Both the position numbers and the translations under genes were made by a program. Below, piece by piece: positions 1 to 62,584 of a stretch of 64,000 bases of DNA. Location: assembly GCF_947568905.1 (NCBI RefSeq), contig NC_079167.1:8308001-8372000 (forward strand). Direction: 5' to 3'. The DNA comes from Ostrea edulis (taxonomy: Eukaryota). How positions within the stretch are numbered: position 1 is the first letter of the stretch; every line of letters begins with the position of its first letter. A model generated the notes under the pieces. It did not search any database and was not told the DNA's origin. It worked only from the letters and a program-made list of their open reading frames with translations.

Positions 1-264
1 GAAAACAAACACCAATGCCTGAGTGTTTTGGTAGTAATGCCTCCAGAGAGGCCGTATTTTGCCCCTGGTGCCTACATCCCACACTGTCAGCTCTGAATTA
101 CCGAATTTCACTGTCTCTACATTAAATCCTATGGTAGGAATGGTCGTGACAACTTCTCCGAGTTTGTAATGGTACAGTATGCTGGTTTTACCGGCGGCAT
201 CTAATCCCAGTATCAGAAGTCGAATGGGTTCTCGGCGACAAAGTATACTACTAAGGTTCCCCAT
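1..264 (-). CDS. Atypical Arf-family small GTPase, copy 1 (5' 88 codons; 3' part lies outside the window)
   Basis: Hand translation from the ATG at 264: [88 protein letters not shown]. Has the Arf G1 motif GLDAAGKT, switch [13 protein letters not shown] and an MG myristoylation start. Paralogous to 13340-13978 and 20175-20813. Confidence 0.93.
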
Positions 265-2237: not shown

Positions 2238-2665
2238 TATAAAATAAAATAATATTGCTAAGTAACGTCAACATATCACGACGTAAGTAATTGTCCTTTG
2301 TGACGTCATAATAAATTACACTGGTAGCGGTATAATACACACAATATTAGACAAAACTTGGAAATCAATTACAGAGTTCAGTTCAATGTAGTTTCAATTT
2401 TACACAGTTATTTTCTATTAAGTTTGGGATTAAATAATTTTATAAAGTATTCCTCCTTTGTAACTCTGGAAATTTCGCAGTCATTATACATTTTATAAAA
2501 TGGAAATATGTTGAAATCTCCATGACCACAATTGGCAAAATGTTCGGAACATGGCGAATTTCTGATACTTGGATCGCGAATTTGCTGCTTGTGGACGCGC
2601 ACACGGGCGTTCAGTTTGTTGGTTTGTCCGATATAGTTTTCATTACAGGTAGGGCAGGTCATACA

Positions 2666-4002
2666 GTACCAACATACCACATGACTTGGGACTAGAAGCA
2701 GTGAAATTTTGGATTGAGAAATATCCAACAGAAATTAACGAAAGATTTTCTAAAGATTTTATACTTAAAGCTCTTCAAGTAGTTTTAGAAAATAACCACT
2801 TTCAATTTGATGATCAATTCTATCTTCAAATTAAAGGCACGGCCATGGGGACAAAGGTGGCTCCTACCTATGCAACCTTAGTAATGGGTTACTTGGAAGA
2901 AAAACTACAGAATAAACTTCCTGAGATGTTTGATGCAAATTTTGCACAATATATTCGACATAATTGGAAAAGATACCTCGATGATATTTTCATTTTTTGG
3001 AATAAAACTACAGATGATTTACAAAAATTCCGTGCTGAAATCAATCAATTCAATTTACTATGGATGTGAGTGATAAAGGACTACCATTTTTGGATCTTCG
3101 AATCATTAAGGATGATACCAATATAATCACGGATCTTTATTGCAAAGAAACAGATTCACATCAATATTTGGATTTCCATTCATGCCACCCTTCCCATACT
3201 AAACGTAACATTCCATACAACATGGCTAGACGGATATGTACAATAAATACGGATACTTCATTACGGTCAAAAAGACTGGAGGAATTGAAAGCATACCTTC
3301 GGCGACAACATTATCCGGAAAACCTCATTAATGACGGAATTACCAAAGCACGGAACACACCTATATCTATCTTAAGAAACTCCCGACACGAAGAAAACGA
3401 TGTAAACAGCGATATTCCTTTTGTAATTACGCATAACCCACGCAACCACAATATTTTTGAAACAGCTAGAAGATTTTTTCCTATATTAGAACAATCCCAA
3501 AATCTCAAAAACCTGATAAAAGAATCTCAAATAAAAAACAGCAGAAGACAGGCTCCTAATCTGAAGAGAATTCTAACGCGTGCCCGATTTACTACGAAAA
3601 ATTCCAAATCCGTGCAAAAATGTGGTGATTCACGTTGCGGTACATGTAATCATCTAGAGGAAGGCAGAGAAAAAATTCTTAAATGCGGCAAAAAATTAAC
3701 ACCAAATTCTAACATCACATGCAAATCCGAAAATGTAATATATTGTATGACCTGCCCTACCTGTAATGAAAACTATATCGGACAAACCAACAAACTGAAC
3801 GCCCGTGTGCGCGTCCACAAGCAGAAAATTCACGATCCAAGTATCAGAAATTCGCCATGTTCCGAACATTTTGCCAATTGTGGTCATGGAGATTTCAACA
3901 TATTTCCATTTTATAAAATGTATATTGACTGCGAAATTTCCAGAGTTACAAAGGAGGAATACTTTATAAAAATTGTTTAATCCCAAACTAAATAGAAAAT
4001 AA
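2666..4002 (+). pseudogene. Disrupted PLE ORF: RT C-terminal half plus GIY-YIG endonuclease
   Basis: ORF pieces 2686-3069 and 3060-3980 are joined by a frameshift near 3050. A second frameshift near 3970 (extra A) replaces FIKLFNPKLNRK*, which is intact in the inverted arm, with FIKIV*. Confidence 0.9.
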
Positions 4003-7239: not shown

Positions 7240-8989
7240 CAGTACAACATACAAAAAAGGGGTGATGGTCAACATTTTACTGTGAGAACATTTGAATTAT
7301 TGGATTTTTAATTGCATTAATTTATATAGAAAGTAATTTATAAAGGTATAACAATATGCTTTTTCAATTGTTTCTTGGCCAATCAGATTCGAGTATTTTA
7401 CATGAAAGTATAATATAAAAGAATATGACAAATCGCGGTCCAGATGTTATTGTGAGGTGACGTTATGTTATATAATATGCCGCATGAATTTTTTAGTTGT
7501 TGCTTTATTGAGAGGCGGATCAAGCAAAGAAGCAAGAATCCTCCTTTCCCCAGTGATAAATGTATATCAAAATGAACAGAGCAATGTTTACTTGGTAAAT
7601 TTATAATTCGAAGTTGATATCTTTGTTTTGACCTATTATTGGGTCATCATACAGAGAAAGATGTTTTACAACAGTGATTTGTGTACAAGTAGAATCTATA
7701 CGGTTTGCTTGACAACGAAAAGAAACTCTGTGTATTAAACCAAAGTATCTCATTTCACCAGCTGACCTTTTATTCCATAGAAAGCCCGAAAACAGTGCTG
7801 TGGTGCAAATTTAAAGAAAGAAAAAATAGTTCCGGTAGCTGGTTGTCAAGGGATGTGTCCCCATGCCAAACCAGGTTAAACAAAAATAACTTGCACTCCT
7901 GAATTTGACCAATCAGAGACTAGAATACAATACAGTTGATTTTGTTTATCATCTTGGAATTAGTCCTTGAATTATCTAGATAAAAACAAAGAAAAGCACA
8001 CACACAAATATAATTTATTTAATATATGAATCGAAAAATATGGCGGAACTGAGAATTCTAGTATTTGATTAATTCATGACAGCTGTTATTGCACACAGTG
8101 TTAGGCTTTACGGGTACACGTCAAAAGAAATCGTAGAATATTTCAGACCTCACGTCAGCTTTAAAGTTTGTTTTGTAAGTAGTTTAACGGCCGTCATATA
8201 GAGACATCACCAGCTGTAGATGAAGTGTTTCAAATTTTGGCCTATGCATGGCGCTGACAGCTGTGGTAGTGATGGTCCTTTTATCAATCTAACAACTACC
8301 ATAACACAGGACGTCGATTGTCAAGGTCATATCCAAACATCCGTGATTTTCACTTTTAATGTCGTGCGCTTGAAGAAGGAATACCTAGTAATGTTATATT
8401 CACCAATAGAGCTTTCTACATGTATGTAGACTTCCTTCGCTTCAAACATCTGTCACAATTTTTAACCCAGTCCTCTGTATCAGACTCCGTCCAGGCCAGA
8501 AGAATCTCTCTCCTAATAATCCAAATGTTCGACTTTTCCAAGGATGACCCATGTCGTTATGAAGTTTTGTCAATGCTGACTTTAGAAGCTGTCCCCGAAG
8601 GATAAACGTTGTTTTCCTGAAGATTAAATATTGAGTTTCAAGTTGTCAAAGTTTCTCATTATTGTTATGTATCATTTATATAGAAAGAAATTTTTGCACT
8701 TTCATTTTTGGCAAATGTTTCTCATCCGCCAAAAGCCAACATTTTCAACACGCCAAAATTACCCGATATACCGTAATCACAACATATGTTAAAAATCTCA
8801 GGTTTGACCCGGGGACGGGGTCGAAAAGAGAACCCGTCCCTTCTAAATGCAAAGCGAAAGTTCTAACCACTAGGCTTCAAGTACCGGTAAAGCAAATTAG
8901 CTTTGAAATTAAGACTTATAGAAAAGGGAAGCTAAAATCATGATTTTATTGCCCCGGTACTTAACCTCAGAAGACAGATTTCATTAATT

Positions 8990-9845
8990 TGGTTATTTAT
9001 TTATTATTATTTATTGAAGAATAGGCATGTATACAAGAAAATAACACATAGAGACATACATTGAAAACGAGAGATCTTGTAAAATACATTGGGTACAAAG
9101 GAAAAATCTTTAAACTATTTGATATTAAAAATATGGTGGTTATACCAGGTAATGTATATGCCAAGGATTACTTATGAAAGCCATATGGCTTATTTCCAAT
9201 GATTGGTAAAGGTCTCTGTATACTGTGATGATAGCAAGATAGCTCGTGTAACGCATGGTCATCTGCAAGAAGAACTTAACTGAGAATGGACAACTCACCG
9301 TTAACAAGTTGTGGAAAAATCTAAATGATATACCGTCCTTAACTATTACAGAATCAGCTGTGAATGAAGCCTGTTCAGGGTCAGTGAGAGGATTTTATAA
9401 GTGGGGAAAGATATGCTAGTTTTAAGAACCTGTACAGTAAATTTAGTAATGGCAAATTGGTCTCTTTTCATGACTGCAGTTTTCCTTTTCTCTGAATTGA
9501 ATAGCTATATCCAGTAAAAAATGGATATAGAGCGGAGAGTAAACGAATATTATATCATTAGACAAAGAAGTCCCTTCAGTGGCAGTCAGTAAGATTTCTC
9601 CCAAAGAAATCATCCCTTCTCCTGGCTAAATGGCTACTATATCGTGACCTTTTCCCGCAACAATGGTAATACAGTAATCTTTGTCTATAGGAATGGCTAA
9701 TCTTAATTATGATTTTATACCTTATAATCATATTTCTACCCTCTGTAGCATTTCGTCCCATCCAGACATTTCTCTGTCCACCTGGATATCAATAATTTGC
9801 ATAAACGTGTACTTTTATCAATAATGTTCGGACATTCTTGATGAA
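8990..9845 (-). mobile_element. Old CR1/L2-type LINE 3' fragment (predates the duplication; paralog at 18546-19415)
   Basis: AATAAA plus (AAT)n tail at the low-coordinate end. Decayed C-terminal zinc-knuckle-like translation (...TSFHYLLTVSCPF...) in the paralog. Confidence 0.55.
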
Positions 9846-9849
9846 ACGA

Positions 9850-12400
9850 TCGATATTTCGATTTCAACAGTATTTTATTCATGTATATATAGAAAATACA
9901 TACATAAATAGGATTAGGCAGCAGACACAATGCCTATATAAGCCTTTCTCATAGGTCAAAGGTCAGTTATGACAAAATAAAATTAATATAGTACATGAAA
10001 ATATAACAAAATGATTGAAGAAAAAGAAATTTACAAATAAGAGAAAAGATAAACAATTATAAAAAGGGAGGATATGACTATGTGCCGGTTAAGTTAAGAA
10101 TATAACAATTAATACATACAATATTTTGGATTCAGAAGTACGTGTATGTTTAGCTGTACAGTGAAGTATTCAGTGAGTACATATTTACATACCTCTTGCA
10201 CAAGAATATCAAATACTGAATCTTCGACTTTTTTCAATGAAGGAATGAACTGTATCAAATATTTTTGAATTAGTACTAAAAGATTCGCCATTGACACCAT
10301 TTAACAATATTTGAACTGTAACTGGGATATTAATAATTGAACTTATGTTATTCAAGAGCATTTCTCTTTGTGCATTGTACTATGGACATTCCATGAATAA
10401 ATGGTAACTATCCTCACATAGATTACCACAAAGATTACAAGATGGATAACTAATAAGACAATGATTAAAGAGATGCGCATTAAGATTCCTAGCCTGATTG
10501 CGAAGTTGGCAATGTATGTTATTTNNNNNNNNNNNNNNNNNNNNNNNNNNNNNNNNNNNNNNNNNNNNNNNNNNNNNNNNNNNNNNNNNNNNNNNNNNNN
10601 NNNNNNNNNNNNNNNNNNNNNNNNNNNNNNNNNNNNNNNNNNNNNNNNNNNNNNNNNNNNNNNNNNNNNNNNNNNNNNNNNNNNNNNNNNNNTGTTTTGA
10701 AAGATGTAATGGAAGGTGATTTTGTTATGTCTTCAGGAAGGTTATTCCATAGTTTTATTGTTGCTAGTACAAAACTATTCATATATGATGATGTTCTAAC
10801 CTGAGGAACAGTATAAGTCCTAGAGGCCCTAAGGTTGTAATTATGATGTGATGATTGACACAATTCTAACATCTCTACAAGATAGTCCGGAGTATATCCA
10901 TTTATAATTTTATAGAGAAGAATAAGCCTATGATTTCTTCTTCTGATTTCTAAAGGTTCCCATCCCAGTTCAGTATAGAGTTTACTTCTTGAAGAATTAT
11001 ATCTCATTCCAGTAATAATTCGTGCTGCTTCAATTTGTACATCTTCTATAGTAATTTTGAATCTTGTACGCTACAACCATCCCATACAACATCAGCATAT
11101 TCTAGTACTGGTCTGATAAAAGAAAAAATATATTTGATAAGGGAGTCTCTACTAAGTGTGTATTTGAGCATTCTAAGAATACATGTATTTATACGATTGC
11201 ATGCTTTTTGGTAAATTCCTTCAATATGTGATGACCAACTTCCATTAGACTGGAATTGAATGCCTAGATGAGTATGCTTGTCACATTTCATAATTGGTTC
11301 ACCTTGAGTGCCAAAATGTATTGAAGGATAGGACATTGATTTTCGAGTGAAATCAACATTTACAGTTTTATTTGGGTTAAAATCCACTGCCCACTGCATA
11401 GACCAGCTTCTAATACTTTCAAGATCAGATGTTAATGACTGTGTTGAACTAATTACATCATCATCCACTATAACAAACAGAGATGTGTCATCTGCTAAAA
11501 GCCTTATATGATTTACCAAGTTAGTATTGATGTCATTTATGTATAATAAGAATAAAAAAGGTCCTAGTACAGACCCTTGAGGCACACCTGCTTCTGTACC
11601 CTTATATGTAGATGAATAACCTTCCAAGACTACTTTCTGAGCTCTGTCACTGATATAGTTCTCAATCCAATGATACAGATTACCCCGGATACCATTTTGT
11701 CTTAATTTGTGTAATAAACCCCTATGCCAGACCCTATCAAATGCCTTAGAAATGTCACAGAAGACAAATCTAACATCTTTACCTTTATCTAAATTTGATA
11801 TTATATTGTTATAAATTTCTATATGTTGATTTACAGTAGAATCGCCTGGTTGAAAACCGGACTGATATTTTAATAATAATTCATTATGATGAATAAAATT
11901 ATACAGGTGTTTGAATATAATTTTTTCCATAATTTTACATACTGAACTTGTTAGAGATATTGGTCTATAGTTGCCAGGGTCTTGTGGATCACCTTTATTT
12001 TTATATACTGGTGTAATACTGGCTTTCCCCCAAATATTGGGGAGAAGACCTTTTTTTGAGGGATAGATTAAAAAGTTTAGTAAAGGTGTTTTAATGGAGT
12101 TGGAAATATTTTTTTTTAGGATTTTAGGAAGAATGCCATCAGGACCAGGTGGGGTTTTTTTTTTATTGCTTAGGATTTTAAGTTGATCAAGTACGATCGA
12201 GATGTATGAAGACCTAGTATAAATGTTTGAATTGTGTAAAGGTTCGAAAGATACCATGCTGCATGGAGACCTCTAGCTCTCTGGGGAAATATTGGAACAG
12301 ACCAGAGAGCTTCAGATCTACCCCTTATAAAAACCTTCGATTTACGTTGCAACTTTTTTTCTTCGTACGGTTAAGGTCTTGTATCACTGTAATTCAATAT
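9850..12400 (-). mobile_element. CR1/L2-clade LINE, 5'-truncated, with disrupted ORF2 (RT domain and C-terminus); present only in this duplication unit
   Basis: ORF 11046-12257 has PGPDGI, YRPISLTS, YQSGF, FCDISKAFDRVWH, GVPQGSVLGP and ADD. ORF 10519-11007 is the thumb/C-terminal region. Past the N gap the frame continues IHCQLRNQARNLNAHLF...CNLCG...HLFMECP*...FIEKSRRFSI*. The empty site is visible at about 19417 in the paralog. Confidence 0.92.
10525..10692. other. Assembly gap (168 N) inside the LINE
   Basis: Run of n characters. Confidence 1.
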
Positions 12401-13339
12401 AAGAAAATTACTATTGCATTTTCCCACTATACTTGTGTCCAAACATACCTTCAATTTGTAAGGATAGGACTGTTATAAAATAGAGGGGTGGGGTCTCAGT
12501 CAGGGGGGGGGGGTGGTTATCCTGTGTCCTTGAGGATATTTTGTTCCTATTGGTTCTGCAAAATAAAATATACAGTGTGTAGTTTTTTGTAAAAAACAAA
12601 CAAACCATGTGTAACATACAACAGGGTTTAAATAAAGATGTTCAACAAATCATATACTTATTTTGCATGCCCACAATAAATATGTGCATTCTGAATCAAA
12701 TCGATTACCACACACATAATTATTTAAGACCTCTTTCCAATACTGGAGTGTGAACCTGTAGAGCAAACTACCAAACACACCAGGCTTTCTCAGTCTCAAG
12801 ATATTTTTTTAATAACGGAGAGAAGTACATCATCAGCTGCCATACCACTATCTAGCATGCTTTCTTCTTCTCGTATATAAATTCTATATATGTTTATGTT
12901 TTTTAATCTTAATCTGGAATATTAGATTTTGATTGTTTATTACTATTATTCAATTATAATAATAGTATTATCATTATTATCAAATGATTTACAGTAACAA
13001 TGTCCATACCACAGAAGAAACACACACTGCTGTCTACAAAAAGGAAGACAATAAACTAGACTAACCTTTATATTGCACAAATGATAATTAATACATGTCA
13101 GTGCATATTTAGACATTTTTTTTTTCCATTAGAATCTCCTATGCTGTGGAATTTTTGATTGCCATTTCTAATTTTATGATTTCTGAAAATGCATCAAATA
13201 ACAGCAAAAGAAATTCTAAAGATATGAGATCTAAAAGACTTCAGTAAATGATATCACATATCTGATTTAATAGTTAAAACTGGTTGAACTGTTCAAGACC
13301 AATCCTAGTAGATAGTTCTACTACTTATATCAAATCTTG

Positions 13340-13978
13340 TCAGTTAAACATCATGTTCTTCACTTTCATTATTGGTTGCCAAATGTATGATGAGAAAGGG
13401 TCCACCTTCTGATTTTTCGGAGAAAAAGCCTTTCGTCTTTTGGTAGTTTCCTCTGTAATCCACTCCAACAATTTATCAAATTCCGAGTCCACTTCAGCAG
13501 TGGGTTTAACTGTCGTCAGAAAAGCTTCACAAGGTCTCTGTTTCTGAATTTTCCTCAAATCTAATTTTTCCACCATCTCCTCTCTTGTCATGCAGTCTGG
13601 AAGATCCCTTTTATTGAGAGCAATAGCAACAGGAACACCGTTCAATTCATCCTCTGTAAGGATACTATAAAGTAACTCTCTTGCTTCTGTAATTCTCTCC
13701 CTGTCAACACTATCGAAAACAAACACCAATGCCTGAGTGTTTTGGTAGTAATGCCACAGGAGGGGCCGTAATTTTTCCCGAGAGCCTACATCCCACACTG
13801 TCAGCTCTGAATTGCCGAATTTCACTGTTTCAACATTAAATCCTATGGTAGGGATGGTCGTGACAACTTCTCCGAGTTTGTAATGGTACAGTATGCTGGT
13901 TTTACCGGCGGCATCTAACCCCAGCATCAGAAGTCGAATGGGTTCTCGGTGATAATGTATACTACTAAGGTTCCCCAT
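13340..13978 (-). CDS. Atypical Arf-family small GTPase, copy 2 (212 aa, single coding exon)
   Basis: Intact ORF with [25 protein letters not shown] in place of WDVGGQ, NKRD (G4) and a C-terminal extension of about 30 aa relative to Arf1. Confidence 0.96.
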   Translation of the reverse strand: MGNLSSIHYHREPIRLLMLGLDAAGKTSILYHYKLGEVVTTIPTIGFNVETVKFGNSELTVWDVGSREKLRPLLWHYYQNTQALVFVFDSVDRERITEARELLYSILTEDELNGVPVAIALNKRDLPDCMTREEMVEKLDLRKIQKQRPCEAFLTTVKPTAEVDSEFDKLLEWITEETTKRRKAFSPKNQKVDPFSSYIWQPIMKVKNMMFN

Positions 13979-14766
13979 TGCGATTTAAAAAGTCCAGAAT
14001 CAAACATGCCCTATATGTCTAAATGATATTGTGTTACTATGCTTATCAAAACATTTCCACCTGAATGTCGATCCCGAGCATATAATAACACCGAGGGGAA
14101 TCGGGCTTATTATAATCGATAATACCGACCGAGTTATAAAAGCACTGAGACCCTAGGGTTTATTCAAAGAGATAAAAGGAATTTCAGCGGATTTGATTTT
14201 TTAAAAGGTATTTCCATCCTCCTGTGACAAGATTGTGCAAAGTCAATGATTTAATAAGATTTATGCATGATAGGAACATGAATTTTGTCTTTTTAAATAG
14301 TTATTGTAAAAAATCTTGTTAACCATAGAATATCTCAAAAGCCTAAGTTATATATGAATAATCAATTATATGTTTCAAAATATTGAATGTAAGGGCAATA
14401 ACTCTGTTTTGATTGAATTCTTTCTCAATTCCAGTTTGCGATAGATTTTCTTTATTTTTCACAAGCTTTTCGAATATTCTCCAAAGAAACAAATTCATGA
14501 AATTTTCATAATTACTTTTATAAACGATATATTGATTGATTGATTGTTAAGCAAGATGCAATAAATCAATCAAATTGCAAATTTCTGACGTTGTGCTTAC
14601 TGATATTTTATCATTTTAATTTGTTACCAAGATATATTATTTGAAGAATCAACAATCAAATATAATAAAAAAATAAAATCCAATACTCAAACTAGATAAA
14701 AGTTTGAGTATTGGATTTTATATTTTGACTTTATTCTACCCCGATACCAAGAAAAAAGAATTTATG

Positions 14767-14807
<41 letters not shown>

Positions 14808-15130
14808 TGGTATTCAAAATTTCAAGAAAAATCATCAGAAGTGATTCAAGCTATAAATGAAAACGACATGTAATGTAAATTGACTAAATATAATTCAAAT
14901 TAGTTTTATTTTTACGTTAAAATGTGTCATTAAAACTAATAATATTTTCCCAAGAATATGCAAAGTGAAAGCAAGTGTACACCATGGCATTGTTTTCATC
15001 GAGACAATTTTGGCCTTACCCTGATACAAAACTCCCTATCCCTGGTATTCAAATTTTATCAGTTACATTCATTTACTTAACCATAAAGGATTAAACTTTC
15101 TACAAACGTCCTTGATTTTCATCCTTTTCA

Positions 15131-15177
<47 letters not shown>

Positions 15178-15261
15178 CCAAATAGAAAGAGTTGATATCA
15201 CACAGTCAAAATAATTCAATAAAAAAAGCAGGAAAATATACAGTTCCAAAATATATTTAAA

Positions 15262-15302
15262 TCACTAGCGCTTTCTGGATTTTAACATCCATCCTCAGGT
15301 GA
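15262..15302 (-). ncRNA. Minimal type-I hammerhead ribozyme (left arm)
   Basis: Exact reverse complement of 15324-15364. Confidence 0.85.
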
Positions 15303-15323
15303 ATACAAATTAATAATTTGTAT

Positions 15324-15364
15324 TCACCTGAGGATGGATGTTAAAATCCAGAAAGCGCTAGTGA
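15324..15364 (+). ncRNA. Minimal type-I hammerhead ribozyme (right arm)
   Basis: UCAC-CUGAGGA-UGGAU(GUUAAA)AUCCA-GAAA-GCGC-UA-GUGA. Confidence 0.85.
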
Positions 15365-15413
15365 TTTAAATATATTTTGGAAATGTATATTTTCTTGCTT
15401 TTTTTTTTTATTG

Positions 15414-15460
<47 letters not shown>

Positions 15461-15463
<3 letters not shown>

Positions 15464-15547
15464 CACTAAATAATCACAACTAGGTACTGAAAATTTTCGC
15501 CCCAGCCCGGGGTCGAACCAGCGACGTACGGCACCCACCGCCTAGCA

Positions 15548-15549
<2 letters not shown>
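15461..15549 (-). mobile_element. 5'-truncated tRNA-derived SINE in (TA)n
   Basis: Nearly identical to the 3' 88 nt of the SINE at 25752-25884. Retains the B box GGTTCGACCCC. Confidence 0.8.
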
Positions 15550-15601
<52 letters not shown>

Positions 15602-15851
15602 GTATGTATATCACCGTATATAAAATGATAATAATTACTAGTCGCAAGTATATATAAATATAGATATAAATCCAAAAATAGGTATCGTAAAAAAAAAAAT
15701 CTACACAAGTAGTATAATAAAAAGATCATAAAGCCGACTTAGCATACTCGACTAGTTTCTTTGCTTAAGGAGGAGAACTAAGCAATACTCAATATACTCC
15801 TGGAGAAGTTTCGAAACTAGTCGCGAGTATATATTTAAGGAGTGATTTTAA

Positions 15852-16407
15852 ATGGAAAGGCAACCCTAACCACATTGTTGCTTTTAGGAATAAAGTATTA
15901 CTTACTAATATTGTAAATAACTAACTTTACCAACAAAAATCCCTGCTGAACGATTTATTCAATATTAATCTATCATATATTTTGAATTACCAGCCGCCAA
16001 GAGAGCGGCCATTAAAGTTTAATTCATGACGTCACACCATCGGTTCCGGTTTATTTCATCAGCAGCACTGTAAACATGACAAGTCACGAACTGTTTAGTT
16101 AGGAACCGTATATATTTGAGTTCATTATTTCGCAAGAAGAAATTCAAAAAAAAGAAGACGTTCAGTTGAATCGCAGATCATGCAGAGGGTACACGTTTCT
16201 TCATACAAATGTATCGAACCTCAACTTGTCATTACGCAAATGATGGATCCACAGTTTACATAGTCTTTTCTTTTCAGATGACTTGGTGGGGTCAGGAATT
16301 TCGAGAGAAAAAAACCTTTTTTCACATCTCCCCTCCGCATTAGTGTAATTAACTGCTTGACAGGAAGGCACCAACCTGGTTACAATGTATTCGTAAAATC
16401 TACCACA
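15852..16407. mobile_element. Paralogous Kolobok-like derivative with its right end deleted
   Basis: Colinear with 4521-5070. THAP-like frame at 16204-16371 on the minus strand (VPSCQAVNYTN...FFSLEIPDP...LWIHHLRNDKL). Confidence 0.62.
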
Positions 16408-16833
16408 TTCATTCATTCATTCAATATTTTATTCCTCTTTGCAGAGAGTATATCAGAAATATATATATTACATTAAGGATGAATCATAGAACATATGTAC
16501 AAATATGAAAATGTGAGAACAAAAAAAAAAAAAAAACGTACAAGTAGAATCTATACGGTTTGCTTGACAACGGAAAGAAACTCTGTGTATTAAACCAAAG
16601 TATCTCAATTCACCAGCTGACTTTTTATTCCATAAAAAGCCCAAAAAACAGTGCCGTGATGTAAATACACAGAGAGAAAATAGTTCCGGTAGCTGGTTGT
16701 CAAGGAATGTGTCCCCATGCCAAACCAGGTTAAACAAATATAACTTGCGTTCCTGAATTTGACCAATCAGAGACTAGAATACAATACAGTTGATTTTGTT
16801 GATCATCGTGGAATTAATCCTTGAATTATCTAG

Positions 16834-17484
16834 GGTAGCAGGGGACAGTTTCGCACTATGGGCCCGGTCAACTTTTTCAAAAAATGGAAATACCCCATAT
16901 TTGAAGTGATATTATATGTGTAAAAATGTATACAATAATTTTAGGATGCATGTCAAATGTAGATGAGTGCTTAATAAAAATGTTGATATACAACATGTTG
17001 GTGTCACCATCATTCCTAGCATATAGATGGGTGCAAATACGAAACTAAGACACGTGGTCAGTTGCTGAAGAAATTCCGGTGAAAACATGCAGGGTCCAGC
17101 AAAGGGTCTGTAGCTGTGAGGGAAGGTGGATGGCCCCATATAAAAGGTAGATTTTTGAGAAGGGCAGATAGGATTCTTGATTGTGCACAATGTCTAAATC
17201 CCGATATTTGGTACTGTGATGGTGTGGGGGTGGTGCGGATTAGCCCAAATGAGAGAAAATCAAAGCAAAAACGGGGAACCTGCTCAGAGCATGTTTTGTG
17301 CACCAGCACCAGTATTTATAGATTACATGTCATTTAGGGTCATAATTTACTAACTACACTAATATGAAATACAAGTATTGACATAAAAGGGAAATATGAT
17401 TTTTCATTAGTCTGTCATAATCTGACTTTGATGTATACCACCTATCCACATGTTTCAGAACCAAAGAAACTGTCCCCTGACACC
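16834..17484. mobile_element. MITE with 19-bp TIRs and TAG target duplication (PIF/Harbinger-like)
   Basis: ggtagcaggggacagtttc ... gaaactgtcccctgacacc, with TAG at 16831-16833 and 17485-17487. The empty site ttatctagataaa is present in the paralog near 7975. Confidence 0.82.
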
Positions 17485-20174
17485 TAGATAGGGACAAGGA
17501 AAAGCACACATACAGATATAATATATTTAACAGATAAATCTAAAAATATGGCGGAACTGAGAATTCTAGTATTTGATTAATTCATGACAGCTGTTATCGC
17601 ACACAGTGTTGGGCTTTACGGGTACACGCCAAAAGAAATCGTAGAATATTTCAGACCTCACGTCAGCGTTAAAGTTTGTTTTGTAAGTAGTTTAACGTCC
17701 GTCATGAAGAGACATCACCAGCTGTAGGTGAAGTGTCACAAATTTTGGCCTATGCATGACGCTGACAGCTGCCAGTGATGGTCCTTTTATCAATCTAACA
17801 ACTACCATAACACAGGACGTCGATTGTCAAGGTCATATCCAAACATCCGTGATTTTCACTTTTAATGTCGTTCGCTTGAAGAAGGAATACCTGGTAATGT
17901 TATATTCACCAATAGAGTTTTCTACATGTATGTAGACTTCCTTCGCTTCAAACATCTGTCACAATTTTAACCCAGTCCTCTGTATCAGACTCCGTCCAGG
18001 TTAGAAGAATCTCTCTCCTAATAATCCAAATGTTCGACTTTTCCAAGGATGACCCATGTCGTTATGAAGTTTTGTCAGTGCTGACTTTAGAAGCTGTCTC
18101 CGAAGGATAAACGTTGTTTTCCTGAAGATTAAATATTGAGTTTCAAGTTGCCAAGTCTCTCATTATTGTTATGTATCATTTAAATGAAAAGAAATTTTTG
18201 CACTTTTATTTTTGGCAAATTTTTCTCATCCGCCAAAAAGCCAACATTTTCAACACGCCAAAATTACCCGATATACCGTAATCACAACATATGTTAAAAA
18301 TCTCAGGTTTGACGGAAGACGGGATCGAGAACAGAACCCGTCCCTCCTAAATGCAAAGCGAAAGTTCTAACCACTAGGCTTCAGGTACCGGTAAAGCAAA
18401 ATAGCTTTGAAATTGAAAGACTTACTGCTTGTGGGAGTTATGAGATTGATCACTGTTCGTTATCTTCACCTTGCATTATAGAAAAGGGAAGTTGAAATCA
18501 AGATTTTGTTGCTCCGGTGTTTAACCTCAGAAGACAGATTTCATTAATTTGGTTATTTATTTATTATTATTTATTGAAGAATAGGCATATATACAAGAAA
18601 ATAACACATAGAGACATACATTGAAAACGAGAGATCTTGTAAAATACATTGGGTACAAAGGAAAAATCTTTAAACTATTTGATATTAAAAATATGGTGGT
18701 TATACCAGGTAATGTATATGCCTATGCCAAGGATTACTTATGAAAGCCATATGGCTTATTTCCATTGATTGGCAAAGGTCTCTGTATACTGTGATGATAG
18801 TAAGTTAGCTCGTGGAACGCATGGTCATCTGCAAGAAGAAGTTGACTGAGAATGGACAACTCACTGTTAACAAGTAGTGAAAAGAGGTTGGTACAAGGAC
18901 TCTAAATGATATACCGTCCTTAGCTATTACATGTGAATGAAGCCTGTTCAGGGTCAGCGAGAGGATTTTATAAGTGGGGAAAGATATGCTAGTTTTAAGA
19001 ACCTGTACAGTAAATTTATAATGGCGAATTGGTCTCTTTTCATGACTGCAGTTTTCCTTTTCTCTGAATTGAATAGCTATATCCAGCAAAAAAATGGATA
19101 TAGAGCGGAGAGTAAACGAATATTATATCATAAGACAAAGAAGTCCCTTCAGTGGCAGTCAGTAAGATTTCTCCCAAAGAAATCATCCCTTCTCCTGGCT
19201 AAATGGCTACTATATCGTGACCTTTTCCCGCAACAATGGTAATACAGTAATCCCTGTCTATAGGAGTGGCTAATCTTAATTATGATTTTATACTTCATAG
19301 TCATATTTCTACCCTATGTAGCATTTCCTCCCATCCAGACATTTCTCTGTTCACCTGGATATCAATAATTTGCATAAACGTGTACTTTTATCAATAATTT
19401 TTGGACATCCTTGATGAAAAACAAACAAAACACGAGTAACATAGAACAGGGTTTAAATAAAGATGTTTAACAAATCATATACTTATTTTGCATGTCCACT
19501 ATAAATATGTGCGTTCTGAATCAAATCGATTACCACACACATAATTATTTAAGACCTCTTTCCAATACTGGAGTGTGAACCTGTAGAGCAAACTACCAAA
19601 CACATCAGGCTTTCTCAGTCTCAAGATATTTTTTCTTAATAACGGAGAGAAGTACATCATCAGCTGCCATACTACTATCTAGCATGCTTTCTTCTTCTCG
19701 TATATAAATTCTATATATATATTTATGTTTTTTAATCTTAATCTGGAATATTAGATTTTGATTGTTTATTTCTGTTATTCAATTATAATAATAGCATTAT
19801 CATTATTATCAAATGATTTACAGTAACAATGTCCATACCACAGAAGAAACATACACTGCTGTCTACAAAAAGGAAGACAATAAACTAGACTAACTTTTAT
19901 ATTGCACAAATGATAATTAATACATGTAGGTGCATACTTTTACGATAGACATAATTTTTTTTATTAGAATCTCCTATGCTGTGGAATTTTTGATTGCCAT
20001 TTCTAATTTTATGATTTCTGAAAATGCATCAAATAACAGCAAAAGAAATTCTAAAGATATGAGATCTAAAAGACTTCAGTAAATGATATCACATATCTGA
20101 TTTAATAGTTAAAACTGGTTGAACTGTTCAAGACCAATCCTAGTAGATAGTTCTACTACTTATATCAAATCTTG

Positions 20175-20813
20175 TCAGTTAAACATCATGTTCTTCACTT
20201 TCATTATTGGTTGCCAAATGTATGATGAGAAAGGGTCCATCTTTTGATTTTTCAGAGAAAACGCCTTTCGTCTTTTGGCCGTTTCCTCTGTAATCCACTC
20301 CAACAATTTATCAAATTCCGAGTCCACTTCAGCAGTGGGTTTAATTGTGGTCAGAAAAGCTTCACAGGGTCTCTGTTCCTGAATTTTCCTCAAATCTAAT
20401 TTTTCCACCATCTCCTCTCTTGTCATGCAGTCTGGAAGATCCCTTTTATTGAGAGCAATAGCAACAGGAACACCGTTCAATTCATCCTCTGTAAGGATAC
20501 TGTAGAGTAACTCTCTTGCTTCTGTAATTCTCTCCCTGTCAACACTATCGAAAACAAACACCAATGCCTGAGTGTTTAGGTAGTAATGCCCCCAGAGGGG
20601 CCGTATTTTGCCCCTGGAGCTTACATCCCACACTGTCAGCTCTGAATTGCCGAATTTCACTGTCTCAACATTAAATCCTATGGTAGGGATGGTCGTGACA
20701 ACTTCTCCGAGTTTGTAATGGTACAGTATGCTGGTTTTACCGGCGGCATCTAATCCCTGCATCAGAAGTCGAACGGGTTCTCGGCGAGAAAGTATACTAT
20801 CAAGGTTCCCCAT
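20175..20813 (-). CDS. Atypical Arf-family small GTPase, copy 3 (212 aa, single coding exon)
   Basis: Intact ORF with 17 aa differences from copy 2. Switch II reads [16 protein letters not shown]. Confidence 0.96.
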
Positions 20814-21329
20814 TGCGATTTAAAAAGTCCAGACATTCAGTACTATCAAGGATATTTACGTGTTACTATGCTTATCAAAACATTCTCCTGCGAATGTCGA
20901 TCCCGAAGCATAATCTTTTAATATTATTTCACGTATGACACCGACACCAAACAGTCTTATTATCATCAATAATACCGATCGAACTATGAAAGCACTGAGA
21001 CCCTATGGTTTATCTAAATAGATAAAAGGAATCTCAGCGGATCTGAATAAATAAAAAGTTACGTCGATGAAATGTAGTAAAAACTTTGGCGTTCCAGAAC
21101 TTATCTCTATCACTATTTAAAACGAGGAATTTTGATCTAAAAATAAATTGGTAAACGCTCGCACTCCAGCCTAGATTTCTATCGAGGCCGGTGGCAGGTT
21201 CAGCAGTTAGAATTCACTGCACACAAGTCACATATGTATATATCTAAGTGGCTATAGTAGTGTGCACATTTGTCATTCATAAACAGAACTGTCGCGCAGC
21301 TGACACAGATTAGACCGACAAGGTGAACC

Positions 21330-61204: not shown

Positions 61205-62584
61205 GTAAGTTTATACTCCATGCTCTGTGTCTGGATATCCACCAGTAACATTAAACAGGTTGGGAACACTTCTCCGATAGCGAGATATTCATGCAAAAAC
61301 GCGATTATCCCTTTTTAACGAGAGTAAATATACTCCGTACAACCGAGAAAAACACCCGAGGAGTACATTTTTTCATGTTTCACGTGAAAAGAAGAAAAAG
61401 TGCTCAAATGTCAAAAACACTTGCGATGCGCATTGGATTTCAACCTCCTTCCCTCTTACGCAGCATTCGCAGCAACGTTATGAATTTCTTGACTGGGTTA
61501 TCAATTTTATAGAGGCAATTCGCATTTTATTGAATGTGTGTTGCACTTATTCAGCATTGCACAGAATTTACCATTATTTTCAATCAAAACACCAAATCAT
61601 TTGTTTATGGTAAGGTTTAATTTCTCGCTAAAGAAAGATAATTGTGTTTTAGCGAGAAGATCTCGCTTAATTTAGGGGAAGGGTTCCCAAACAAATTCTA
61701 TACCCAATACATGTGACTGGTTAAGGTTTTATACATAGTACTGTACTGTACTGCCTGTCTAATCCAACATTTGGAGATAAATTTTTCATCATAACAGACA
61801 TGGTGACAGAAAGCCAATCAGGATCACTTATAAGTAAATAAAAGTTAGAGGTATAAAATATAAATGATAATAATGCAAATCAAATACATCATAATGTTAA
61901 TCAAAGGCATAATAATATGTAATACTGTGAAGTTAAAAGTCATAATGTAGGTGTCATAATGCAAATGAAAGGTGTGATAATGTGAAACATAGGCATGATA
62001 ATGTGGAGTAAAAGACATAATAACACTATTTAAGAAAGGGTTTTGAATGGGAATTAATTTAAATAAAGTGCTCTGGACCTCCAATGTGCATTGCCATGCA
62101 TTTGTACTTTTTAATATGTATATATGTACATGAAAAATTGCTTCTGCAGCTCTGTCCAAGCCCGATTGTTAAAAAACTAAAACAAAGACAAAACATTTTT
62201 ATTGTATGTAGATCTACCACTTTTGTTGTAGTCAGATAATCACAATTTCATCAATTTTTTTTTAGGGAAAATGTCAATCTAGTACATGTACCAATTTTCT
62301 TCAGTTAAATCCTGGATCCAACACTCAGGGCTCGAAATTAACATATGCCCGTCAGTCTGTGACTGGTTAAAACTCTAGTGGACTGACTGACATTTGTTTT
62401 AGTCAGTCCAATGTGACTGGTTAATTTTCTAAAGCATCATTTAGGAAAATATACTCATGAAATCTAATACACACATTTGGCATGCTTTGATATGTAGATA
62501 TCAGACAAAACTGTTTCATAAATCTCACATAAGTGTTACAATATTGTCTGAGGCATATTGAGTACAGTAATGAAATATGTTTAA

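Follow-up and report, generated by a model that had tools for sequence, protein, structure and literature searches.

Why do neighbouring genes that are alike over most of their length differ sharply in two short segments? The question is raised by a tandem array of Arf-like GTPase genes in Ostrea edulis. The window analysed here is the 64,000-nucleotide stretch G000:C4:8308001-8372000, where G000 is the Ostrea edulis genome and C4 the contig of the window (NC_079167.1). It contains two complete intronless minus-strand open reading frames (ORFs), copies 2 and 3, and the first 88 codons of a third, copy 1, which is interrupted by the window start. Three further array loci lie upstream of the window, so that the array comprises six loci within ∼47 kb: copies 1–3, a truncated copy 4 and the older, degenerate copies 5 and 6. 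An initial annotation, made from the sequence alone, read the divergence of copies 1–3 as diversifying selection in an arms race with pathogens. We favour a different account, to which we give about an even chance: that a few sites are kept different between paralogs in an otherwise purified, partly converted and intronless array of Arl20-like genes.

The three copies and their divergent segments are as follows; coordinates without a prefix are positions in the window.
1..264, minus strand: 5′ part of copy 1 (codons 1–88); the full 212-codon intronless ORF is G000:C4:8307629-8308264
13340..13978, minus strand: copy 2, Arl20-like ORF of 212 codons, intact and free of introns, with its stop codon (match to Pfam Arf at E 4e-51)
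20175..20813, minus strand: copy 3, Arl20-like ORF of 212 codons, intact and free of introns, with its stop codon (match to Pfam Arf at E 1e-49)
25..78, minus strand: copy 1 G3/switch II, codons 63–80 (Arg67 codon 64-66)
13739..13792, minus strand: copy 2 G3/switch II, codons 63–80 (Arg67 codon 13778-13780)
20574..20627, minus strand: copy 3 G3/switch II, codons 63–80 (Arg67 codon 20613-20615)
13922..13975, minus strand: copy 2 codons 2–19 (N-terminal segment and β1)
20757..20810, minus strand: copy 3 codons 2–19 (N-terminal segment and β1; Gln19)

Between copies 2 and 3, 17 of the 212 positions have changed: 5, 8, 9, 10, 14 and 19, then 65, 68, 70, 74, 75 and 79, and finally 146, 157, 179, 187 and 192. 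Every count that had been given for these clusters is reproduced, and the three switch II strings quoted with them are correct. The divergence is indeed non-random. Two 15-residue windows with at least six changes each arise with P = 1e-5 (100,000 shuffles). Of the 20 positions that vary among copies 1–3, seven fall in residues 2–19 and another seven in 63–80 (p = 4e-4 each). The first cluster had been assigned to the N-terminal helix. It does lie at the N terminus but is not helical throughout: residues 14–20 form strand β1 in the structural model, and the cluster is therefore better described as the N terminus plus β1. Within it, most oyster-clade proteins retain Cys9, and copies 1, 2 and 3 carry Cys, Tyr and Ser at this position (238-240, 13952-13954 and 20787-20789); a contig from sequencing run X6 holds a copy-3-type allele with Cys9. 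Judged from these residues, position 9 could be a lipidation toggle.

Copies 1–3 retain Gly2, the P-loop, the switch I Thr, the G3 Asp and NKxD (G4), together with an Arf1-like switch I and Phe47, Trp62, Leu73 and Tyr77. The DxxGQ motif is replaced by Dxx(T/S)R, with Arg at the catalytic Gln site and Thr or Ser at the G3 glycine. Arg67 is present in 19/19 aligned oyster-clade proteins, the one exception among further cluster members being the ENA member P0148, with Ser at 67. The proteins also have ∼30 extra C-terminal residues, ending in a low-confidence predicted helix, and their G5 region is no longer alignable. An AlphaFold model (19 sequences) has the Arf fold at a mean predicted local distance difference test (pLDDT) score of 62.9; since pLDDT falls below 50 in residues 66–77 and 186–212, we make no claims about contacts from it.

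A profile search matches scallop, clam, rotifer and hemichordate proteins with DxxGR and a C-terminal extension, and the best match of the scallop DxxGR protein in the Ostrea genome is the array itself. In trees the oyster genes nest within the bivalve DxxGR (Arg-type) proteins, with support of 99/92 and 93/82. A clade with canonical Arfs (Arf1/Arf4) was tried and rejected (approximately unbiased (AU) test, p-AU 0.002; 14 rows versus 11). In the available parts of the paper that named it, Arl20 is an Arf1-derived holozoan group, lost in vertebrates and marked by three unique intron positions; single-exon genes are kept as Arl20 and excluded from the intron test (Vargova et al., 2021; PMC8358228). 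These positions are not scorable here because the oyster genes have no coding introns. The supplement, as far as available, has Arg at the Gln71 site in 17/18 Arl20 sequences, and we take this Arg together with a C-terminal extension as the mark of the group, a criterion that is our reading of the supplement and not the paper's own definition. The oyster proteins have both features, and their sequences make them likely members of the Arl20 group. In our trees Arl20 was represented by stored rotifer, hemichordate and bivalve proteins as proxies, the PMC8358228 sequences being compared by eye. The accessible part of that supplement gave 0 matches for Crassostrea sequences, and the words “glutamine” and “Q71” are absent from the part of the main text that was searched. 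No intron-bearing Arl20 parent was seen elsewhere in the Ostrea genome among at least 18 and at least 22 matches, most of which were assessed only by their position and score.

Arg at the Gln71 site also occurs, in the same partial supplement, in protist Arf1 paralogs (Neovahlkampfia, Goniomonas, Chromera, Symbiodinium) and in one Arl17, and seems to be a recurrent change. From what is available of two further papers, the Gln of DxxGQ is named as catalytic (PMC12485133) and Q71L is described as constitutively active (PMC9652361), which makes poor GTP hydrolysis a reasonable prediction for the oyster Arg67 proteins.

The identity of the genes alters how their divergence is to be read. The initial annotation had set the variable switch II against the near-invariant switch II of true Arfs. 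With Arg67, Thr or Ser at the G3 glycine and an Arf clade rejected, the array genes are not true Arfs, so that invariance does not apply as a baseline. The loss of the Gln does not by itself free switch II, because 35 non-oyster Arg-type proteins, mostly rotifer-like, conserve most of it (G65 in 35/35, R75 in 35/35).

Relatives of the array, several per species, are found in S. cucullata, S. echinata, M. gigas, M. angulata and C. virginica, which with Ostrea makes four oyster genera, and they group by species or genus in trees of both protein halves. A few sites depart from this pattern. Two M. gigas and two S. cucullata paralogs, taken as a quartet, are grouped by genus at 53 sites, by type at 4 (17, 19, 70 and 74) and crosswise at 0. 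The proposed cross-genus types are Leu17-Leu19-Ile70-Trp74 and Phe17-Phe19-Met70-Leu74, and the sharing of a four-residue type by one Magallana and one Saccostrea paralog is the best independent signal. Sites 17, 19, 68, 70, 74 and 79 are reused between paralogs in other oysters; 19, 68 and 70 are variable in Ostrea, in the Magallana cluster and in the C. virginica cluster, a coincidence with p 0.006 under a uniform null and p 0.036 under a null restricted to family-variable sites. Amphioxus Arl20a and Arl20b, in the available PMC8358228 supplement, differ at 19, 70, 74 and 79, with the same Gln/Leu pair at 19. Residues 70 and 74 correspond to Arf1 Ile74 and Trp78, which lie in the interface of Arf1 with a PH domain in the accessible part of PMC12485133; the earlier proposal that the variable residues sit on an interaction surface is borne out to this extent. 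Residue 19 presumably packs on switch II, as we assume by analogy with Ras Val9.

The coding sequences give a less even picture. Between copies 1 and 3, four nonsynonymous changes (codons 65, 66, 75 and 79) and one synonymous change (codon 72) in codons 63–80 had been offered as a sign of selection. The counts are right, but these codons hold 42 nonsynonymous and 12 synonymous sites, and 4:1 is thus the neutral expectation. We rejected the ratio as evidence: the NG86 ratio of nonsynonymous to synonymous substitution rates (dN/dS) is 1.14 in this pair, the most favourable of the three, compared with 0.69 for copies 2/3 and 0.43 for copies 1/2. We then used a codon likelihood model on copies 1–4, with a star tree assumed and test regions picked after the data had been seen. 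The gene body has a dN/dS of 0.21, different from 1 (p 3e-5). Under a single mutation rate, dN/dS is 2.9 in codons 2–19 (p 0.02) and 3.0 in switch II (p 0.011), and a dN/dS of 1 in both regions is rejected (p 0.008). Relaxed constraint alone, one of two alternatives named at the outset, therefore does not fit at a shared rate; the other, patchy conversion, has mosaic runs described below in its favour. Codons 2–19 stand out further, with p 0.017 even when the regional rate is free, at the parameter bound. The codon site model that had been suggested as a check supports selection in part: M2a is favoured over M1a for copies 1–4 (p 0.018) but not when the two older copies are added to make six (p 0.39), and switch II is close to 1 under a local rate. 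All codon tests are confined to the Ostrea genome because a metagenome scan yielded no oyster-clade DNA homologues among the best 80 of 226 loci, all at most 57% identical.

The reading that we favour, of a small set of specificity or conformation residues, draws on the genus-spanning sites, the quartet, the amphioxus pair, the conservation of switch II in other Arg-type proteins and the Arf1 interface taken together. The data themselves demonstrate purifying selection on the gene body (dN/dS ∼0.2), retention of the P-loop, switch I, G3 Asp and G4, replacement of the G3 Gly and the Gln, clustering of the divergence, a mosaic relation of the copies and the reuse of sites between paralogs of other oysters. 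Conversion and recent duplication would hold the copies alike within each species, and selection would hold a small set of specificity residues different. A few β1 and switch II residues would then be likely to alter partner binding or switch conformation between copies, and each copy may act as an adaptor that is anchored at a membrane, is loaded with GTP most of the time and prefers a partner of its own, be it host or microbial.

Several points weigh against this reading. The quartet was picked after the alignment had been seen; switch II enrichment is not significant in any of 7 other groups (p 0.056 to 1); and Arg-type proteins as a whole are hypervariable at site 19 (2.73 bits versus 0.18), which fits tolerance. 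When rates are allowed to differ by region, switch II has a dN/dS of 1.01 at a 2.8-fold rate and a value of 1 in both regions is not rejected (p 0.057); the neutral regional-rate model (log likelihood −1118.0) ties with the one-rate selection model (−1117.5) at an equal number of parameters. The star tree, the post hoc regions and the lost site-model support with six copies belong here as well, and recombination inflates dN/dS tests of selection. The low pLDDT across switch II bears on the functional part of the account. As for family membership, Arl20 enters through proxies, the branch that sets off the whole Arg-type group in the best quick tree has a support of only 75, and the AU test does not reject a clade with a TRIM23-like domain (p 0.128).

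The most serious rival requires no selection for difference. The divergent sites would be tolerant ones, and patchy conversion would have homogenised the rest of the gene while skipping the N terminus and switch II, where older differences survive unselected. The duplicated units and the loci outside the window are laid out as follows.
12592..14196: duplicated block with copy 2, 92.4% identical to 19417-21046
19417..21046: duplicated block with copy 3, counterpart of 12592-14196
7976..9846: outer flank of the tandem unit, 93–94% identical to 17484-19419
G000:C4:8281771-8282199, plus strand: copy 4 (L005)
G000:C4:8296944-8297570, minus strand: copy 5 (67–70% identity)
G000:C4:8285064-8285672, minus strand: copy 6 (58–61% identity)

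Copies 2 and 3 thus lie within duplicated blocks of 89–94% identity, and between 19957 and 20196 four successive 60-nt bins have no substitution relative to copy 2. Copy 1 equals copy 3 over a run of 8 sites in coding sequence (CDS) nt 309-535 (p 0.03), after which copy 2 equals copy 3 in the 3′ flank. The older copy 5 is much nearer to copy 1 in codons 91–175 (12–14% divergence) than elsewhere (30–33%). These mosaic runs indicate gene conversion between copies. In switch II, copy 2 has a dense tract of its own, with 7/8 polymorphic sites in CDS nt 198-221, two of them purely synonymous, and dS in codons 63–80 is raised in the pairs that include copy 2 (0.33 for copies 1/2 and 0.24 for 2/3, where the other codons give 0.09 and 0.08), compared with 0.08 for copies 1/3 and 0.045–0.09 for the remainder of the gene overall. 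The tie between the neutral and the selection model and the non-significant six-copy site model likewise suit a neutral mosaic. On the other hand, codons 2–19 show 9 nonsynonymous and 0 synonymous differences among copies 1–3, the runs test over the whole CDS reaches just p 0.063, and a purely neutral mosaic gives no reason for the recurrence of these four marker residues (17, 19, 70 and 74) in one paralog each of Magallana and Saccostrea. A runs test including the flanks (p <1e-4) was set aside for the CDS-only values, being inflated because the differences cluster near an insertion. The O. edulis DNA alone cannot separate selection from skipped conversion. With the evidence from other genera added, we prefer the specificity residues and regard the purely neutral mosaic as the runner-up, tenable though somewhat doubtful.

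The arms race is improbable in our judgement. It would have the copies serve as decoys or restriction factors, offering Arf-dependent microbial effectors a surface like that of Arf1 and diversifying as the effectors change. In its fullest form, equally improbable, the array would be a decoy GTPase arm of immunity: a repertoire of GTP-locked Arf1 mimics, their N-terminal and switch II modules shuffled by conversion, under balancing or diversifying selection by Arf-hijacking pathogens. In the accessible part of PMC6731672, the contacts of MCF with ARF3 lie mainly in the interswitch and switch 2 (Gly69-Gln86), which is the region variable in the oyster copies. Switch I and Phe47, Trp62, Leu73 and Tyr77 stay Arf1-like, as bait would need to, and the weak signal of positive selection and the repeated duplication in oysters would also be expected. 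Yet the literature search yielded no data on induction, binding or resistance; Arl20 is an old holozoan group whose members differ at the same sites in amphioxus, going by the available PMC8358228 material; and four type residues common to two genera are more reminiscent of lasting functional types than of an ongoing race. What stands of the original proposal is non-random divergence that includes residues of an Arf1–partner interface, the rejection of relaxed constraint alone at a shared rate and the variation of the same sites in other oyster genera; for a link of the copies to pathogens we found nothing, and nothing in the analysis supports or excludes a pathogen decoy. A search for literature on this array, which did not extend to the supplements of oyster transcriptome papers, found none.

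Contigs from other sequencing runs bear on whether the copies are real. The copy 2 switch II letters are found in X5, X7 and X8, the copy 1 type in a single contig of X9, a library of unrecorded kind, and the copy 3 type in X6. Copies missing from some runs were not counted, since contigs drop variants. The two RNA or presumed RNA runs, X1 and X2, gave 0 contigs with array copies, and their small word shares are no evidence of expression. The copy 1 N terminus is combined with the copy 2 switch II in one X8 contig and with copy 3 sequence in one X6 contig; we did not count these as recombinant alleles, because the copies have stretches of 69–89 nt in common, exceeding the assembler's word, and the joints may be graph chimeras. 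That the copies are uncollapsed alleles or dying duplicates, with clusters due to assembly errors or early pseudogene damage, is very unlikely: radical changes at family-conserved positions in copies 2 and 3 (Trp/Gly75, Ser65), the truncation of copy 4 and the missing RNA contigs would fit, but there are three intact ORFs, a constrained gene body, flanks distinguished by insertions and three switch II types that recur in contigs of X5–X9, although the best DNA holder among these runs may be the assembly's own source.

The remaining loci have features of their own. Copy 4 has lost the 5′ leader and codons 1–68 while retaining the upstream region, and its potential product is 142 residues from Met70, without the P-loop; the deletion joint is found again in contigs of X5 and X7. 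Annotated products of 142–144 residues with a Met70 start also occur in M. gigas (P0124) and S. cucullata (P0070), where Met70 may be just the first free ATG. In copy 5 the P-loop is altered and 5 residues are deleted after switch II; its partner in both trees is the JGI record P0025. Copy 6 has lost 8 residues within switch I and has no G3 Asp; P0177 and P0296 are similar to it by eye. With intact ORFs and degenerate motifs, copies 5 and 6 look like maintained pseudo-GTPases.

A ∼220-nt insertion directly follows the stop codon of copy 1 (3′ flank, G000:C4 ∼8307400-8307615), with none in copies 2–4. Broken retroelements lie between copies 1 and 2, at 2653-3980 (plus strand; reverse transcriptase (RT) and GIY-YIG) and at 10519-12272 (minus strand; RT), the latter adjoining a masked stretch at 10525-10692. 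Also within the array, overlapping long ORFs with a weak integrase SAM-like match (G000:C4:8298028-8302761, minus strand) are likely a DIRS-type retrotransposon, and a 304-codon ORF (G000:C4:8290896-8291807, minus strand) has no Pfam match, its 3 homologues found all being from O. edulis. Neighbours in the window are a sodium:solute symporter from 21327 (plus strand), an alpha-2-macroglobulin RAP exon at 52934-53251 (minus strand) and a death effector domain exon at 60799-61248 (plus strand); upstream lies a somatomedin-B secretin-type G-protein-coupled receptor (G000:C4:8253591-8255765, minus strand). A second tandem array, at G000:C4:92337000-92363000 (L023–L026), comprises at least six Arf-like genes that contain introns and encode the canonical DxxGQ; by eye, its interswitch is similar to the Arl19 sequences in the available PMC8358228 material, and switch II differs between its copies.

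Arl20 is an old invertebrate group of the ARF family without a known function, and a whole-word literature search found the name only in the naming paper (PMC8358228). In oysters, the likely members lack the catalytic glutamine, have duplicated repeatedly and have reused the same few residues to differ, which provides a short list of positions and natural variants for studying the role of an Arf with Arg for Gln. If pathogens did drive the divergence, farmed oysters would possess an immune gene of a new type; if they did not, it is an instructive case of conversion and a wrong baseline mimicking an arms race.

Among known systems, arrays of major histocompatibility complex (MHC) or opsin genes undergo concerted evolution, in which paralogs group by species while few functional sites stay different. 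The oyster array has the same species-wise grouping with few divergent sites, although selection is not firmly shown here. TRIM23/ARD1 also has an Arf1-derived domain, and the sole TRIM23-like sequence used (P0055) likewise lacks the Gln, but the oyster ORFs have no RING, B-box or coiled-coil and are not joined to it in the best trees. The 212-codon ORFs have a stop just upstream and G-domain Pfam matches only, with no RING, B-box or coiled-coil fusion, a search that did not include longer homologues. Class I/II Arfs (Arf1, Arf4) share ∼50% identity, the fold, Gly2, the P-loop, switch I and most of the switch II helix with the oyster proteins, which differ in having no DxxGQ, ∼30 more C-terminal residues and a rejected joint clade; 36 canonical Arfs show no variation at sites 65, 66, 70 and 74. 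The closest likeness is to Arl20, in the Arf1-like P-loop and switch I, the Arg at the Gln71 site, the C-terminal extension, the invertebrate range and the frequent duplicates, and single-exon members are known (Adineta Arl20a and b). On the oyster side, most members have changed the G3 Gly to Thr, Ser or Phe and lost the Arf-type G5 motif, and the genes form a tandem array without coding introns. The array is a real oyster variant of a known but unstudied group, and its Arg-for-Gln signature and reused sites are the most useful results.

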